Shown: in pieces, positions 23,991 to 32,000 of the stretch | Layout: every line of letters starts with the position of its first letter | Position numbering within the stretch: position 1 is the stretch's first letter | DNA from: Mycolicibacterium smegmatis | Lineage (GTDB): Bacteria > Actinomycetota > Actinomycetes > Mycobacteriales > Mycobacteriaceae | Direction: 5' to 3' | Assembly: GCF_001457595.1 (NCBI RefSeq) | Contig: NZ_LN831039.1 | Span: 6,180,001 to 6,212,000 of the forward strand | Length of the DNA stretch: 32,000 nucleotides | The notes under the pieces: model-generated | Told to the model about the DNA's origin: nothing | Databases searched by the model: none | What the model saw: only the letters and a program-made list of their open reading frames with translations | Made by a program: the position numbers and the translations under genes

Positions 23991-24097
23991 AGTGGCACCG
24001 TAAGACCGGCGATAAATGCTTGTCCAAGTTAAGTTTGCGGCTTACTGATGCACTATTTGAATCGGTACCGGAAGCAGCGGTGAGCGCCCGGACGCTG

Positions 24098-24134
24098 TCG
24101 CGAAAGGCGCGAGGACTCCCCCGATCCGGGAGTC
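24098..24134 (-). terminator. tandem hairpins at or after the stop of the 24133..24594 ORF (terminator-like, no U-tract)
   Basis: GACTCCC-ccgatcc-GGGAGTC (24114-24134, 7-bp stem, overlapping the stop codon), followed by TCGCG-aaagg-CGCGA (24098-24112). Immediately downstream is an AT-richer stretch (24001-24065) that probably holds the promoter of the KGSADH operon. Confidence 0.3.
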
Positions 24135-24594
24135 AGGAGGCGCGGCGGGCCTGGCCGCGCAACTCCAGGCGGTGCAACACGTCGGCGCCGAGCGCGTGCA
24201 GGTTCTGGTCGCCCGCCGGGATGAGGGTCACGCCCTCGGCGACCCCGGCCGAGGCGATGTCCTCGATCAGACCCGCGAGGCCGTCGGCCGTGCCGACGTA
24301 ACGGACCACCGCGTCGCCGGCGGGCACGTCGGCGGCCACCTCGAGGCGGCGCGCGGAGCGGAAGTCGTTCGCGACGGCGACGGTCACGTCGAGGATCACC
24401 GCCACGGTGTCGTCCTCGGCCTTGATGCGCGTCCGTTTACGTCGCGCCTGCGCCAGGTCCGACGCCGATATCCGGACCGTCGGGGCGGCGTCCTGCGCAC
24501 CGTCGGTCAGTTCACTCCAGGAATCGGCGTCCGCCACGAATAACCGCACGCCCGCCAGACTATGCCCGACTGGTACATCCGTGCAGGGTTGCAC
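24133..24594 (-). CDS. hypothetical protein resembling only the C-terminal ~140 aa of LLM-class (luciferase-like) flavin oxidoreductases
   Basis: Coding-like GC3 bias across most of the ORF. ILDVTVAVANDFRSARRLEVA...VRYVGTADGLAGLIEDIASAGVAEGVTLIP resembles LLM C-termini. There is no room for the N-terminal TIM-barrel part, because terC ends at 24639. GTG start; the true start is uncertain. Confidence 0.4.
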   Translation of the reverse strand: MQPCTDVPVGHSLAGVRLFVADADSWSELTDGAQDAAPTVRISASDLAQARRKRTRIKAEDDTVAVILDVTVAVANDFRSARRLEVAADVPAGDAVVRYVGTADGLAGLIEDIASAGVAEGVTLIPAGDQNLHALGADVLHRLELRGQARRAS

Positions 24595-24638
24595 TCACCG
24601 AGAATGTAAGGACCTGGTTACGAACTTCACCGCACCCG

Positions 24639-25607
24639 CTACTGGGCATCACGCACGCGGGTCTTGTACAGGCTCGCGGCCGTGGTGATCAGCAGCGTCA
24701 CGACGATCACGCCCAGGCTGGCCAGCGTCGGGATCTCGGGCACGTGTACAGGCTCACCGCCGTTGATGAACGGCAGCTCGTTCTCGTGCAACGCGTGCAG
24801 GATCAGCTTCACGCCGATGAACGCCAGGATGAACGCCAGCCCCTGCGACAGGTACACGAGCCGCTTGAGCAGGTCGCCCAGCAGGAAGTACAGCTGCCGC
24901 AGACCCATCAGCGCGAACACGTTGGCCGTGAACACCAGGTACGGCTCCTGCGTCAGGCCGTAGATCGCGGGAATCGAGTCAAGCGCGAACAACAGGTCGG
25001 TGGTGCCCAGGGCCACGATGACCAGGAACATCGGCGTGATCAGCCGTTTGCCGTTCTCCCGCACCCACAGGCGCAGCCCGTCCCATTTGTCGGTGGTGCG
25101 CAGGTGTTTGCGTGCGAAGCGCACCACCGCGTTGTCGCCGTCGTCGTCATGGTCGGTGTCACGGACCAGGTTGACCGCGGTGTACACCAGGAACGCGCCG
25201 AAGATGTAGAACACCCACGAGAACTGGTTGATGGCCACCGCGCCAAGCGCGATGAAGATGCCGCGGAAGATCAGCGCCAGGATGATGCCTACCAGCAGGG
25301 CCTGCTGCTGGTAGATCCTCGGCACCTTGAAGCTGGCCATGATGATCAAGAAGATGAACAGGTTGTCGACCGACAGGCTGTACTCGGTGAGCCATCCGGC
25401 GAAGAACTCGACGCCGTACCGGTGGCCGTGGAACAACCACGTCCACACTCCGAAGGCGATCGCGAGCCCGATGTAGATCGACAGGTACGTCGCCGTCTCG
25501 CGTCGCGTGGGTTCGTGTGGACGACGCCCGATGATCACCACGTCGAACAGCAGTACGGCGATCGTCACCGACAGGGTGATGATCCACTCGAGCTGGGTTA
25601 CGTGCAT
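24639..25607 (-). CDS. TerC-family integral membrane protein
   Basis: The signature TerC blocks are EYSLSVDNLFIFLIIM and ALGTTDLLFALDSIPAIYGLT. About 9 TM segments. The ATG at 25607 is preceded by the SD GGAGG. Confidence 0.9.
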   Translation of the reverse strand: MHVTQLEWIITLSVTIAVLLFDVVIIGRRPHEPTRRETATYLSIYIGLAIAFGVWTWLFHGHRYGVEFFAGWLTEYSLSVDNLFIFLIIMASFKVPRIYQQQALLVGIILALIFRGIFIALGAVAINQFSWVFYIFGAFLVYTAVNLVRDTDHDDDGDNAVVRFARKHLRTTDKWDGLRLWVRENGKRLITPMFLVIVALGTTDLLFALDSIPAIYGLTQEPYLVFTANVFALMGLRQLYFLLGDLLKRLVYLSQGLAFILAFIGVKLILHALHENELPFINGGEPVHVPEIPTLASLGVIVVTLLITTAASLYKTRVRDAQ

Positions 25608-25613
25608 CGATTA

Positions 25614-25740
25614 CCTCCGGTCGCCAAACAACGCCGGAGGTCTCTTCCACCGGGCCGAGACGGCCGGCCTGCGGCACCGATCGGTTCCATGGCGACCGAC
25701 GTGATGACGACACCGCAGCGAAGGAATACTCCCCTCCGCG
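25614..25740 (-). promoter_or_regulatory. candidate yybP-ykoY (Mn2+) riboswitch with SD-sequestering expression platform in the terC leader
   Basis: The minus-strand RNA reads ...GCGGAGGGGAGUAUU...(stems CUGCGG/CCGCAG and GGCCG-UCU-CGGCC)...GGAAGAGACCUCCGG.... It carries the conserved GGGGAGUA and AGAGACC blocks, closed by a P1 helix CGGAGG (25738-25733) / CCUCCG (25640-25635). The same CCUCCGG (25640-25634) can instead pair with CCGGAGG (25620-25614), which is the terC SD. Confidence 0.55.
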
Positions 25741-25823
25741 GACAAGTGTGCCTGATCGTGACCGTGATCCGAAATCGAACAGCCACGCCGCGTCGTCTCC
25801 GGCCCGCCCGGGCACGGGCTTAG

Positions 25824-25829
25824 TAGTTT
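25824..25829 (+). promoter_or_regulatory. possible -10 element (TAGTTT, TANNNT class) for a leaderless transcript starting at the GTG of the Pls-like gene
   Basis: TAGTTT ends 6 nt before GTG 25836. There is no purine-rich SD in the 20 nt upstream of the start codon. Confidence 0.3.
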
Positions 25830-25835
25830 GTATCC

Positions 25836-28800
25836 GTGACAGCAACGGACGACGCAGTTGGTGGGCACGCGGTCCCCGCTCAGTACCTGCTCTCATCGCT
25901 GGCACCTGCACCGCGGACGCTCATCGACATCCTCTACGACACCGCGCGGCGGTTCCCCGACGCACCCGCGATCGACGACGGCACGGTGCAGCTCACCTAT
26001 GCCGAACTCGTCGCCGACATCGAGGAGAGCGTCGCGTGGCTGGCCGCACGCGGCATCGGCCGCGGCGACCGGATCGGCATCCGGATGCCGTCGGGAAGTT
26101 ACGCGCTGTACGTCGCGATCCTGTCGGTGCTGGCGGCCGGGGCCGCCTATGTGCCTGTGGACGCCGACGATCCCGACGAGCGCGCCCAGTTGGTGTTCGG
26201 TGAGGCCGGCGTCGTCGGCGTGATCACCGAGCGCGGCCTGATCCGCGGCGTCGGCCAGTCGCGCGGCTGGCGCGCGGCGGCCCCGCTCGGCCGCGACGAC
26301 GCCTGGATCATCTTCACGTCGGGCTCTACCGGCACTCCCAAGGGAGTCGCCGTGACGCATCGCAGTGCCGCCGCGTTCGTCGACGCGGAAGCACGAATGT
26401 TTCTGCAGGACAACCCGATCGGACCGGGTGACCGGGTGCTCGCGGGCCTGTCGGTCGCGTTCGACGCATCGTGCGAGGAGATGTGGCTGGCCTGGCGCAA
26501 CGGTGCGTGCCTGGTGCCTGCGCCGCGGTCGCTGGTGCGCAGCGGGATGGACCTCGGCCCCTGGCTGGTGAGCCGCGACATCACCGTGGTGTCCACGGTT
26601 CCGACGCTGGCGGCGCTGTGGCCCGCCGAGGCGCTCGAATCGGTGCGGCTGCTGATCTTCGGCGGCGAGGCCTGCCCGCCCGAATTGGCGCAGCGGCTCG
26701 CGGTCGACGGCCGCGAGGTGTGGAACACCTACGGGCCCACCGAGGCCACCGTGGTGGCCTGCGCGGCGCGCCTCGACGGCCTTGGCCCGGTCAGCATCGG
26801 GCTGCCGTTGAGCGGCTGGGATCTGGCCGTGGTGGACCGTGACGGGCTCCCGGTGGCGGTCGGCGAGGTCGGTGAGCTGGTCATCGGCGGCGTCGGGCTG
26901 GCCCGTTACCTGGACCCGGACAAGGACCGCGAGAAGTACGCGCCGATGCCGACGCTGGGCTGGAGCCGCGCGTACCGCAGCGGGGATCTGGTGCGACTGC
27001 AGGACGACGGCCTGTACTTCCAGGGCCGCGCCGACGATCAGGTGAAGGTCGGCGGCCGCCGCATCGAGCTCGGCGAGGTCGACACCGCGCTGGTCAACCT
27101 TCCCGGCGTCAGCGCGGGGGCGGCGGCGGTCCGCAAGACCGCGAGCGGCACGCCGCTGCTGGTCGGCTACGTCGCGAGCCACGACCCGTCGTTCGACCTC
27201 GCGGCCGCGCGCGCCGCGCTGGCCGAATCGCTGCCTGCCGCGCTGGTACCGCGTCTGATCCTGCTCGACGAACTGCCGACCCGTACCTCCGGCAAGGTCG
27301 ACCGCAACGCCCTGCCCTGGCCGCCACCCGACGGTACCGATCAGGACGCCCCCGAACTCGTCGGCACCATGGGCTGGCTGGCCGGCCTGTGGCGCGACGT
27401 GCTCGGCACGACCGTCGACGGGCCCGAGGCCGATTTCATCGCGCTCGGCGGCGGGTCACTGTCGGCCGCGCAGCTCGTCGCCGCGATGCGCAGGCGCTAC
27501 CCGCAGGTGACTGTTGCCGACATCTACGACCATCCCCGGCTCGGTTCGCTGGCCGGATATCTCGACGAGCTGTCCCCGCCCCCGGAGATCACCGCGCGCG
27601 AGGTCGCCCCGACGTCGCGGCTCACGCAGGCCGCTCAGGTCGCGCTTTCGGTGCCGCTGGCCACGCTGACCGGCATGCAGTGGGTGGTGTGGCTGGGCCT
27701 GTTGAACAACGTCGCCGCCGCGCTGGACCTCGTGCCGTGGGCGCAGCCGGTCAACTGGTGGCTGCTGCTCGCCGGCTTCGGAGTGTTCATCACGCCCGTG
27801 GGCCGCATGGGTATCGCGGTGCTGTTCGCCCGGATGCTGTTGAGCGGCCTGCAACCCGGGACCTACCGCCGCGGCGGCGCGGTGCACCTGCGGGTCTGGT
27901 TCGCCGAGCGGCTCGCCGAGGCCAGCGGCGCCGAGAACCTCGCGGGCGCACCGTGGATGGTGTACTACGCCCGCGCGCTCGGCAACAGCGTCGGCAAGGG
28001 CGTCGACCTGCACTCGGCACCGCCGGTGACCGGCATGGCCAAGCTGGGGCACCGCTGCTCGATCGAACCCGAGGTGGATCTCAGCGGGCACTGGATCGAC
28101 GGGGACCTGTTCCACGTCGGCCCCATCACGGTCGGCAACGACGCCACGATCGGCGCCCGCACCACGCTGCTGCCCGGCGCCACGGTCGGCAAGAACGCCG
28201 ATGTGGCACCGGGGTCCGCGGTGGTCGGCAAGGTCAAGAACGGCCAGTACTGGAAGGGCTCGCCCGCCGTGAAGTCGGGCAAGGCGCGCCACCCGTGGCC
28301 CGATCACCGGCCGCCGCGCGCCCCCGTGTGGGTCGCGGTGTACGGCGTGACCTCCATCCTGCTGGGCAGCCTGCCGCTGGCGGGCCTGGCCGCGGGTCTC
28401 GCCGTGATCGGCTGGGGCATCCGTGACACCGCCACCCCGGTCGACGCGATCCTGCCCGCGCTGGCGTGGACGCCCGTGGCGACGGTGGTCGCGGTGCTCA
28501 CCTACGCCGTGTTGACCGTGCTGGGCGTGCGCGTGCTCTCGGTGGGGCTCAGCGAGGGCTACCACCCGGTGCGCAGCCGCGTGGGCTGGCAGTTGTGGGC
28601 CACCGAACGCCTCATGGACGCCGCGCGCAACTACCTGTTCCCCGTCTACGCGAGCCTGCTGACCCCGTGGTGGCTGCGTCTGCTGGGCGCGAAAGTCGGT
28701 GAGGGCACCGAAATCTCGACGGCGCTGTTCACCCCGAAGTTCACCGAGGTACAGGACGGCGCGTTCCTGGCCGACGACACCATGGTCGCGTCGTACGAAC

Positions 28801-29771
28801 TGGGCGGCGGCTGGATCCACGTCGCCAAGGCCACCATCGGCAAGCGCGCGTTCCTCGGCAACTCGGGCATCACGCAACCCGGGCGCAAGGTGCCCGACGA
28901 CGGTCTGGTGGCCGTGCTGTCGGCCACGCCGCACAAGGCCAAGGCCGGCTCGTCGTGGCTGGGCAGCCCTCCGGTGCGGTTGCGGCGCAAGGCGACCGCC
29001 GCCGACGTGCTGCGCACCTTCCACCCGTCGCCGCGGCTGAAAGCCATGCGCGCGGCGGTCGAGACGTGCCGGATCATCCCGGTGATCATCACGTTCGGCA
29101 TCGGGGTGGCGGTGCTGGGTGCACTGCAGACGCTGGTGCTGCGGTTCGGTTACCTGTGGGCCGCGCTCGCGAGCGGACTGGTGCTGCTGGCCGCGGGTGC
29201 CCTGGCCGGGCTCATCGCGGTGGCCGCGAAGTGGTCGGTGATCGGGCGGATCCGCGCCGTCGAGCATCCGTTGTGGTCGTCGTTCGTGTGGCGCAACGAG
29301 GTCTCGGACACGTTCGTCGAGACCGTCGCGGCGCCGTGGTTCGCGCGGGCCGCGACCGGCACCCCGGTGATGAACCTGTGGCTGCGCGCACTCGGCGCGT
29401 CGATCGGACGCGGGGTGTGGTGTGAGACCTACTGGCTGCCCGAGGCCGACCTGGTGAGCCTCGGCGCGGGGGCCACCGTCAACCGCGGGTGTGTGGTGCA
29501 GACGCACCTGTTCCACGACCGCATCATGCGGATGGACAGCGTTGTCCTGGAAGCGGGTTCGACGCTGGGACCGCACTGCGTGGCGCTGCCTGCCGCCCGA
29601 TTGGGCGCCGGCGCCACGGTGGGACCCGGATCGCTCGTGATGCGTGGCGACGAGGTTCCGTCGTCGACGCGGTGGCAGGGCAATCCGATCGCGCCGTGGG
29701 ACATGTTCGGCAAGAAACGCACCGCCGCCGCGTCGGCGCGCAAGAAGACGACAGAGAAACCGGCCGCGTGA
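25836..29771 (+). CDS. Pls-type (epsilon-poly-L-lysine-synthetase-like) single-module membrane NRPS: A - T - (2 TM + soluble domain) x3
   Basis: 1311 aa. Adenylation cores: IIFTSGSTGTPKGV, FDAS, NTYGPTEATV, YRSGDL, GRADDQVKVGGRRIELGEV, SGKVDR. The carrier motif is LGGGS (Ser541, nt 27456-27458). Three hydrophobic helix pairs then alternate with three mutually similar hexapeptide-rich soluble segments. No HHxxxDG condensation motif and no recognisable thioesterase domain. GTG start. Confidence 0.9.
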   Translation: MTATDDAVGGHAVPAQYLLSSLAPAPRTLIDILYDTARRFPDAPAIDDGTVQLTYAELVADIEESVAWLAARGIGRGDRIGIRMPSGSYALYVAILSVLAAGAAYVPVDADDPDERAQLVFGEAGVVGVITERGLIRGVGQSRGWRAAAPLGRDDAWIIFTSGSTGTPKGVAVTHRSAAAFVDAEARMFLQDNPIGPGDRVLAGLSVAFDASCEEMWLAWRNGACLVPAPRSLVRSGMDLGPWLVSRDITVVSTVPTLAALWPAEALESVRLLIFGGEACPPELAQRLAVDGREVWNTYGPTEATVVACAARLDGLGPVSIGLPLSGWDLAVVDRDGLPVAVGEVGELVIGGVGLARYLDPDKDREKYAPMPTLGWSRAYRSGDLVRLQDDGLYFQGRADDQVKVGGRRIELGEVDTALVNLPGVSAGAAAVRKTASGTPLLVGYVASHDPSFDLAAARAALAESLPAALVPRLILLDELPTRTSGKVDRNALPWPPPDGTDQDAPELVGTMGWLAGLWRDVLGTTVDGPEADFIALGGGSLSAAQLVAAMRRRYPQVTVADIYDHPRLGSLAGYLDELSPPPEITAREVAPTSRLTQAAQVALSVPLATLTGMQWVVWLGLLNNVAAALDLVPWAQPVNWWLLLAGFGVFITPVGRMGIAVLFARMLLSGLQPGTYRRGGAVHLRVWFAERLAEASGAENLAGAPWMVYYARALGNSVGKGVDLHSAPPVTGMAKLGHRCSIEPEVDLSGHWIDGDLFHVGPITVGNDATIGARTTLLPGATVGKNADVAPGSAVVGKVKNGQYWKGSPAVKSGKARHPWPDHRPPRAPVWVAVYGVTSILLGSLPLAGLAAGLAVIGWGIRDTATPVDAILPALAWTPVATVVAVLTYAVLTVLGVRVLSVGLSEGYHPVRSRVGWQLWATERLMDAARNYLFPVYASLLTPWWLRLLGAKVGEGTEISTALFTPKFTEVQDGAFLADDTMVASYELGGGWIHVAKATIGKRAFLGNSGITQPGRKVPDDGLVAVLSATPHKAKAGSSWLGSPPVRLRRKATAADVLRTFHPSPRLKAMRAAVETCRIIPVIITFGIGVAVLGALQTLVLRFGYLWAALASGLVLLAAGALAGLIAVAAKWSVIGRIRAVEHPLWSSFVWRNEVSDTFVETVAAPWFARAATGTPVMNLWLRALGASIGRGVWCETYWLPEADLVSLGAGATVNRGCVVQTHLFHDRIMRMDSVVLEAGSTLGPHCVALPAARLGAGATVGPGSLVMRGDEVPSSTRWQGNPIAPWDMFGKKRTAAASARKKTTEKPAA

Positions 29772-31105
29772 CGAGGTCCAAGAAGGTCGCCAAGAAAGCC
29801 GGGCACCCGCCTGTCATCGACCCGTACCTGCCCGGAAACGGCAACTTCGGCTACCGGGTGTCGCGCTACGAACTCGACCTCGAATACAAGGTTGCGAGCA
29901 ACCGTCTGACCGGGACCGCGACCATCACCGCGGTGACGCTTGCGGCGCTGCGAACGTTCACCCTCGACCTGTCGGACAACCTCTCGGTGGGCAAGGTCTC
30001 GGTGAACGGCCGCAGGCCCGCACAGTTCCGCTGCTCCGGGGCGAAACTGCACATCACGCTGCCCTCGGCGCTGCCCGCTGGCTCCGCGATGACCATCGTC
30101 GTCCGCTACAGCGGCAATCCGCGGCCCATCGACACCCTGTGGGGTGACGTCGGTTTCGAGGAACTCACCAACGGGGCGCTCGTCGCGGGCCAGCCCAACG
30201 GCGCGGCGTCGTGGTTCCCGTGCGACGACCATCCCAGCGCCAAGGCCTCCTACCGTATCCAGATCAGCACCGACAGCCCGTACCACGCGATCGCCAACGG
30301 GGAACTGTTGTCGCGCAAGGTGCGTGCGGGCCACACCGTGTGGACCTACGAACTCGCCGAGCCCACCTCGCCGTATCTGGTGACGCTGCAGATCGGCATG
30401 TACGAATCGCACCGGATGACCAAGACCCCGGTACCGATGCACGCCGTGCTGCCGCCGCGCCTGCGATCGGCGTTCGACCACGACTTCGAGCGTCAACCGC
30501 AGATGATGAAGCTTTTCGTCAAACTCTTCGGCCCGTATCCGCTGAGCACCGGCTACACCGTGGTGGTCACCGACGACGACCTCGAGATACCGCTTGAGGC
30601 CCAGGGCATCTCGATCTTCGGCGCCAACCACTGTGACGGCAGCCGCGGGTCCGAGCGTCTCATCGCCCACGAGTTGGCCCACCAGTGGTTCGGCAACTCG
30701 GTGACGGCGCGGCGCTGGCGCGACATCTGGCTGCACGAGGGATTCGCGTGCTACGCCGAGTGGTTGTGGTCGGAGAACAGCGGCGGGCGCAGCGCGGCCG
30801 AGTGGGCACAGCACTACTACGACAAGTTGCGGCACTCCCCGCAGGACCTGCTGCTGGCCGATCCCGGCCCGCGCGACATGTTCGACGACCGCGTGTACAA
30901 GCGCGGAGCCATGACCCTGCATGTGCTGCGCGAGCGGATCGGCGACAAGGACTTCTTTGCGCTACTGCAGGATTGGACCACACGCCACCGGCACAGCACG
31001 GCGTTCACCGACGATTTCACGGGCCTGGCCGCCGGTTACACCAGTGAATCGCTGCAGCCGCTGTGGCAGGCGTGGCTGTACTCGGAAGCGCTGCCGCCGC
31101 TGTGA
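29768..31105 (+). CDS. M1-family zinc metallopeptidase (short, ~445 aa, no signal peptide)
   Basis: The gluzincin signature is HELAH (30668-30682) -X18- E (WLHEGFACY). Also present are FPCDDHP (the FPCFDEP-like block) and the catalytic-Tyr block VYKRGAM. GTG 29768-29770 forms a GTGA overlap with the synthetase stop. The track ORF from 29489 is over-extended. Confidence 0.85.
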   Translation: MTRSKKVAKKAGHPPVIDPYLPGNGNFGYRVSRYELDLEYKVASNRLTGTATITAVTLAALRTFTLDLSDNLSVGKVSVNGRRPAQFRCSGAKLHITLPSALPAGSAMTIVVRYSGNPRPIDTLWGDVGFEELTNGALVAGQPNGAASWFPCDDHPSAKASYRIQISTDSPYHAIANGELLSRKVRAGHTVWTYELAEPTSPYLVTLQIGMYESHRMTKTPVPMHAVLPPRLRSAFDHDFERQPQMMKLFVKLFGPYPLSTGYTVVVTDDDLEIPLEAQGISIFGANHCDGSRGSERLIAHELAHQWFGNSVTARRWRDIWLHEGFACYAEWLWSENSGGRSAAEWAQHYYDKLRHSPQDLLLADPGPRDMFDDRVYKRGAMTLHVLRERIGDKDFFALLQDWTTRHRHSTAFTDDFTGLAAGYTSESLQPLWQAWLYSEALPPL

Positions 31106-32000
31106 CCGACGGCGGTGCGCCTGCCCCATTCGATCCGGACGATCCGGCGCGTGGCGCGATCACCCGCAGCAGCATCGCCCGCGTCGGGTCGGCGACCGCC
31201 ATCACGGCACTGTGCGGCTACGCCGTGCTGTACCTCGCCGCGCGTGACCTCGAACCCGCGGGATTCTCGGTGTTCGCGGTGTTCTGGGGCGCCTTCGGAC
31301 TTGTCACCGGCGCGGCCAACGGCCTGCTGCAGGAGGCCACGCGTGAGGTCCGGTCGGTCCAGGTCGCGCCCCGGGTGTCCGGGGTTTCGGGGCCGCGCAC
31401 ACATCCGATGCGGGTGGCGGCCGCGGTCGGGGTGGTCGCGGCGCTGGTCATCGCGGGCACCTCGCCGCTGTGGAGCGGGCACGTGTTCGTGGAGTCGCGC
31501 GCCCTTTCCGTCGCCCTGCTCAGCGTCGGTCTGGCCGGGTTCTGCCTGCACGCGACATTGTTGGGCATGCTCGCCGGTATCGACCGCTGGACCGAATACG
31601 GCGCGTTGATGGTCACCGACGCGGGCATCCGTGTGGGGGTGGCCGCCGCGTCGTTCGTCTTAGGTTGGGGTCTGGGCGGTTATCTGTGGGCCACCGTCGC
31701 GGGGGCGGGCGCGTGGCTGATCCTGTTGCTCACCGCACCCGCCGCGCGTGTGGCCGCCCGCCAGGTCACCGCGGGCGGCACGTGGACGTTCGTCCGCGGG
31801 ACCGCACACTCGATCGCCGCGGCCGGGGCCAGCGCGATCCTGGTGATGGGATTCCCGGTGCTGCTCAAGGCCACGTCCGCCGATCTCGGTGCGGCAGGCG
31901 GTGTGGTGATCCTGGCCGTCACGCTCACGCGGGCCCCGCTGCTGGTGCCGCTCACCGCGATGCAGGGCAACCTGATCGCCCATTTCGTCGACCAGGCCCG
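31102..32000 (+). CDS. multi-pass membrane protein, MOP/Wzx (polysaccharide-biosynthesis/flippase)-like, 5' part (runs off the right edge)
   Basis: Not in the ORF track. From GTG 31102 (GTGA overlap with the peptidase stop) an uninterrupted frame reads VTDGGAPAPFDPDDPARGAITRSSIARVGSATAITALCGYAVLYLAARDLEPAGFSVFAVFWGAFGLVTGAANGLLQEATREV...AILVMGFPVLLKATS...LTRAPLLVPLTAMQGNLIAHFVDQA. It has strong GC3 bias and at least 6 hydrophobic helices. Confidence 0.55.
   Translation, partial: MTDGGAPAPFDPDDPARGAITRSSIARVGSATAITALCGYAVLYLAARDLEPAGFSVFAVFWGAFGLVTGAANGLLQEATREVRSVQVAPRVSGVSGPRTHPMRVAAAVGVVAALVIAGTSPLWSGHVFVESRALSVALLSVGLAGFCLHATLLGMLAGIDRWTEYGALMVTDAGIRVGVAAASFVLGWGLGGYLWATVAGAGAWLILLLTAPAARVAARQVTAGGTWTFVRGTAHSIAAAGASAILVMGFPVLLKATSADLGAAGGVVILAVTLTRAPLLVPLTAMQGNLIAHFVDQA

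Follow-up and report, generated by a model that had tools for sequence, protein, structure and literature searches.

The window, by which we mean the whole stretch of 32,000 nucleotides of Mycolicibacterium smegmatis that was analysed (GC 64-73%), carries near its end three consecutive genes on the forward strand, listed with their domains in Table 1. The first, read by translation of its open reading frame, encodes a synthetase of the Pls/PosA family. Pfam detected in it AMP-binding (PF00501, aa 35-357), PP-binding (PF00550, aa 514-576) and Hexapep (PF00132, aa 764-796) domains only, and no condensation or thioesterase domain was found with Pfam or NCBIfam. The family model TIGR02353 covers aa 600-1285 with 735.5 bits, for a cut-off of 423.1, and is matched over positions 2-695 of its 695. 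Within this terminal domain, soluble hexapeptide-repeat segments lie between hydrophobic segments. A single A-T module followed by a TIGR02353 membrane domain is the architecture that defines Pls/PosA enzymes, which are synthetases of cationic homopoly(amino acids). The catalytic motifs are intact (TSGSTGTPKG, FDAS, NTYGPTE, YRSGD, GRxDDQVK and SGKVDR), and the carrier serine S541 in GGGS is invariant in the alignment of family representatives.

Table 1 Features of the synthetase locus, in positions of the window
Feature	Position	Strand	Evidence
Pls/PosA-family synthetase gene, 1311 aa, GTG start	25836..29771	+	Pfam and NCBIfam
Adenylation (A) domain, ~aa 35-499	25938..27332	+	7WEW match, AF2/Foldseek
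Ten code codons, D210 to K487	26463..27296	+	Codon script, Pls code and contacts
Thiolation (T, carrier) domain, Ser541 attachment site in LGGGS	27375..27563	+	PF00550, 47.2 bits
Pls/PosA terminal membrane domain	27633..29690	+	TIGR02353 E 6e-221; PF00132
M1-family peptidase gene, 445 aa, PldII-type partner	29768..31105	+	PF01433, PF17900
426-aa polytopic membrane protein gene	31102..32000, to ~32382 (L081:103-1383)	+	Many hydrophobic segments

The GTG start codon of the peptidase gene overlaps the TGA stop codon of the synthetase gene in the tetranucleotide GTGA. The same arrangement is known from Streptomyces albulus, in which pls and pldII are translationally coupled (PMC9223678), and from Corynebacterium variabile (PMC8117764). 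The third gene in turn overlaps the stop codon of the peptidase gene and extends about 380 bases beyond the end of the window. Its product matched no family in Pfam or NCBIfam; in a protein atlas it lies near polysaccharide-synthesis and flippase-like clusters, a proximity that we treat as a lead only. No NRPS genes stand beside the synthetase at the locus. A search of positions 24000-32000 against Rfam at gathering thresholds returned no family, the terC leader (25605-25740, reverse strand) being included in the interval.

Specificity pocket of the adenylation domain

A script run on the codons of the 1311-aa open reading frame returned DAESIGTVVK for the ten Stachelhaus positions, which are occupied by D210, A211, E214, S253, I274, G276, T298, V306, V307 and K487. 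These are the ten letters given in the initial annotation, which had located them at 26463-27296; this span does run from the first to the last code codon, since it is bounded by those of D210 (26463-26465) and K487 (27294-27296). The code residues are held by the core motifs AFDASCEEMW, ITVVSTVPT, LLIFGGE, WNTYGPTEATVV and SGKVDR, and NTYGPTE was also read among the code-bearing motifs of the synthetase.

The pocket region (aa 196-325) was compared with GrsA-PheA (1AMU) using phmmer, query positions 4-115 pairing with positions 224-334 of the chain. From the ends of this alignment, D210, E214, S253, I274 and G276 correspond to GrsA positions 235, 239, 278, 299 and 301, and T298, V306 and V307 to positions 322, 330 and 331 once one extra residue in the loop before NxYGPTE is counted, the mapping being arithmetic on the alignment end-points and motifs and not a residue-by-residue comparison. 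In the phmmer ranking, 1AMU came 12th with the whole A domain as query and 7th with the pocket region alone. The second-best solved match of the pocket region was PosA, with 94 bits.

The top solved match of the A domain (aa 14-499) was 7WEW with an E-value of 6.4e-189, the next entry being at 4e-106. This structure is the A domain of Pls, the epsilon-poly-L-lysine synthetase of S. albulus, with Lys-AMP, in which lysine is contacted by D213, E217, S256, T301 and K495, its amine and carbonyl being held by D213 and K495 (PMC11253843). The residue-by-residue alignment of query positions 146-449 with 7WEW contains zero gaps, and the segments FDASCEEMW, ITVVSTVPT and YGPTE.TVVAC are identical between the two proteins. 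Once the numbering is transferred by the alignment offsets, with a correction of one for an additional first residue in the deposited chain, the five Pls contacts correspond here to D210, E214, S253, T298 and K487, and all five are conserved. An AlphaFold2 model of aa 1-505 (mean pLDDT 82.8), submitted to Foldseek, likewise retrieved 7WEW first (E-value 3.9e-70, 65% identity over 477 columns) and 1AMU second. Since the gapless 7WEW alignment places the same residues in the pocket, the earlier assignment is upheld against a structure. The protein of a Streptomyces locus (L079) was considered as a proxy for Pls and dropped, being no closer to 7WEW than the window protein itself (662 versus 633 bits).

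From its code, the domain had been predicted to activate L-lysine or a close diamino acid. The lysine prediction is supported both by the conservation of all the Lys-AMP contact residues and by a ten-out-of-ten match with the published code of S. albulus Pls, DAESIGTVVK, an enzyme whose lysine substrate is experimentally known (PMC10522769, Supplementary Table 2), a ten-letter code being a heuristic and an imperfect predictor. Lysine analogues may also be accepted by the pocket.

The comparison on which the prediction had been built fared less well. It took as reference the lysine module of the bacitracin synthetase BacB, with DAESIGSVCK as its code. The first eight letters, DAESIGSV, are indeed those published (PMC3207962) and agree with the window code at 7 of 8 positions, while the full code gave no match in a literature text search. 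The proper comparator is Pls, which is a membrane-bound iterative homopolymer synthetase rather than one module in a multimodular NRPS.

Conservation among relatives

The code is DAESIGTVVK in 119 out of 120 close homologues (83-100% identity), the remaining one reading DAESVGTVVK. We also examined 80 loci from Mycobacterium, Rhodococcus, Nocardia, Gordonia, Tsukamurella, Dietzia, Kribbella, Amycolatopsis, Arthrobacter, Streptomyces and others. Wherever the pocket was covered (79/79 loci, from other actinobacterial genera, 59-87% identity) the code was identical, and the pattern DAESIGTV[VI]K is kept even where the A domains of family representatives share as little as 31-45% identity. Because it is nearly invariant in close homologues and identical across genera, the code pattern is not due to chance. 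The closest named homologue is that of Mycolicibacterium goodii, with 94% identity.

A peptidase homologue lies directly downstream of the synthetase in 76 of the 80 loci. In most of the Mycobacterium loci the next gene after the peptidase is that for the 426-aa membrane protein, which recurs more weakly in Williamsia, Speluncibacter and Dietzia; after the pls-peptidase pair it is absent from the Rhodococcus, Nocardia and Streptomyces loci among the 80. Two contigs stood out in this set. One, labelled as a Bifidobacterium breve MAG (L020), carries a Mycobacterium-like pls-peptidase-membrane locus with 78% identity and a terC neighbour, and the other, a 'Candidatus Melainabacteria' MAG (L074), carries an actinobacterial-type locus with 61% identity. 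Both contigs appear to have been mis-binned.

TIGR02353 was matched above its cut-off in 104 of the 151 sampled genomes of the genus. In several genomes (G017, G081, G089, G106, G108, G142 and others) this match is fragmented or interrupted by TGA stops, which suggests decay or frameshifting of the synthetase gene in some species of the genus.

To describe the family more broadly, its proteins were clustered at 50% identity, and the codes of the 64 full-length representatives were classified: 45 are of DAE type, 9 of PosA type, 9 of DF type and 1 of beta-Lys type. In a FastTree phylogeny of 66 family proteins, in which deep branches are weak, the window protein falls in a clade of 16 rows with 100% support. 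DAE-type codes are found in 15 of these 16 rows, and one row comes from the fungus Metarhizium; fungal Pls enzymes have been confirmed in the literature.

Odd codes were encountered in otherwise uniform clades, the representatives concerned being P0177, P0183 and P0256. The code DSESIGSVGK occurs inside a lysine-type clade and DVEFNGTVAK inside an ornithine-type clade; the beta-Lys-type DGESISVVNK is sister to the DAES-type proteins. The odd pocket codes of these three representatives may be substrate switches.

Predicted substrate and product of the synthetase

In enzymes of this kind the A domain fixes the monomer only, and the terminal domain governs the epsilon linkage and the chain length. 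We assign a probability of roughly 85% to the reading that the pocket residues, domain order, homology and synteny best suggest, namely that the A domain is part of a Pls-type enzyme that would use L-lysine to make an epsilon-polylysine-type product. By analogy with the Pls structure, L-lysine would be held at its alpha-amino group and its carboxylate by D210 and K487, and E214, at the pocket floor, would form a salt bridge to the epsilon-ammonium group with the assistance of S253 and T298. The small side chain of Ala211 would leave space for the four-methylene side chain of the substrate. Following the mechanism of the family, the A domain would form Lys-AMP and the lysine would then be loaded onto the carrier Ser541. 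The C-terminal membrane domain would link lysines repeatedly through their epsilon-amines, in a template-free manner, to yield a polycationic isopeptide, and the coupled M1 peptidase would trim or degrade the polylysine.

No specific report of mycobacterial polylysine or NAPAA clusters emerged from our literature search. The Pls homologue of C. variabile, 51% identical to Pls, directed the synthesis of 26-35-mer epsilon-PL in S. coelicolor, and the native C. variabile gene is silent in culture (PMC8117764). Because of this precedent, the synthetase gene of the window may be silent in the same way.

A first alternative accepts that L-lysine is activated and concerns only what is made from it, the product being, for example, short oligomers, or polylysine bound to the cell envelope or exported into it, and not a free 25-35-mer epsilon-poly-L-lysine. 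In the envelope or export variant, the co-located flippase-like membrane protein would help. This alternative draws on the third gene, which is translationally coupled, is restricted mainly to Mycobacterium loci and a few relatives, and is foreign to the gene pair described in Streptomyces or Corynebacterium (PMC8117764). The atlas lead towards polysaccharide-synthesis and flippase-like clusters points the same way, and the terminal domain is just about 40-59% identical to those of other family representatives. Nevertheless, that domain fits TIGR02353 from end to end and the pls-peptidase pair is kept as in proven producers; moreover, the role of the third gene is a guess because it has no family assignment. 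We hold this alternative to be unlikely.

Activation of some other cationic amino acid, whether ornithine, beta-lysine, DAB, DAP or arginine, is considerably less probable still. It finds an argument in the imperfect predictions of ten-residue codes and in the composition of the family: all its members, including the ornithine enzyme, share an Asp in code position 1 and a Glu in position 3 (PMC10522769), corresponding in the window protein to D210 and E214. Each of the two binds one amino group of a diamino acid. As these two residues are common to the family, an acidic floor alone cannot separate diamino acids. For the same reason, the statement in the initial annotation that ornithine-type codes carry the acid elsewhere does not hold in this family, since the Glu of PosA also occupies code position 3.

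The remaining positions nevertheless set the window code apart from those of the enzymes with other substrates, which are DMEHNGTVSK for A. baumannii PosA (Orn), DFECLSAVTK for the S. celluloflavus enzyme (DAB), DFEYVGTVTK for the S. albulus PD-1 enzyme (DAP) and DGESVSVVNK for the Streptoalloteichus enzyme (beta-Lys) (PMC10522769). They differ from the window code at 4 to 5 positions, namely position 2 (M, F, F and G, respectively, versus A) and 3 to 4 others, and the A4-A5 region around the code is nearly identical to that of Pls. Code position 2 is the one that sets the chain length accepted, with Ala in Pls, Met in PosA and Phe in the DAP and DAB enzymes, and the M218A mutant of PosA gains Lys activity, a shift of its activity towards lysine (PMC10522769). 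The window protein has Ala211 at this position, as in characterised Pls, and lysine is therefore favoured over ornithine, a distinction that the placement of Glu has no power to make in the Pls/PosA family. That the protein could be a lysine module resembling BacB in a conventional multimodular NRPS, as the 7 of 8 first code letters shared with BacB-M1-Lys might suggest, is scarcely credible and is refuted by the domain architecture, which lacks condensation, epimerisation and thioesterase domains as well as NRPS neighbours and whose C-terminal 700 aa form a Pls/PosA membrane domain.

Judged by its sequence, the mycobacterial synthetase is thus an ordinary copy of a well-known enzyme, already named as Pls/PosA family in databases, and its predicted lysine pocket is the textbook Pls pocket found throughout Actinomycetota. 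The analysis nonetheless yields L-lysine as a firm substrate call, one that can be tested at little cost, for a conserved gene of a mycobacterium in wide use as a model. A rule of thumb is corrected as well, in that within this enzyme family code position 2, and not the location of the acid, parts lysine from ornithine and shorter diamino acids. The third coupled gene, that of the 426-aa membrane protein, is the sole unusual feature of the locus. We raise as a speculation, with low confidence, that fast-growing mycobacteria, M. smegmatis included, may make a polylysine-type polycation which this lineage-specific flippase-like protein could export or anchor in the envelope. If true, this would be a polylysine-type polycation unreported from mycobacteria, and one that could do more than act as a secreted antimicrobial.

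Comparison with known systems

BacB module 1, which incorporates L-Lys into bacitracin, differs from the window protein in the 8-residue signature solely by Ser in place of Thr at position 322 (PMC3207962). Its assembly line is multimodular and includes condensation domains, and the window protein has only the A and T domains in common with it.

PosA, the delta-poly-L-ornithine synthetase of Acinetobacter baumannii (PDB 8G95-8G98), is of the same family and architecture, with the same Asp and Glu at code positions 1 and 3. Its code departs from that of the window protein at position 2, among others, where Met shortens the pocket and the window protein has Ala. PosA has no co-transcribed neighbours (PMC10522769), whereas the window synthetase is followed by a coupled peptidase gene.

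The C. variabile system comes from the same order, Mycobacteriales, and is likened to the window locus, from its published description (PMC8117764), by its pls-peptidase operon and its pocket type.

The closest likeness in the pocket is with S. albulus Pls, which has the identical code, the five lysine contacts in common and an A domain 65% identical to that of the window protein. The two synthetases share the A-T-membrane domain order and are about the same size, and each is followed by a translationally coupled metallopeptidase gene. The window locus differs from that of S. albulus by its host, a Mycolicibacterium, and by the extra coupled membrane-protein gene downstream.
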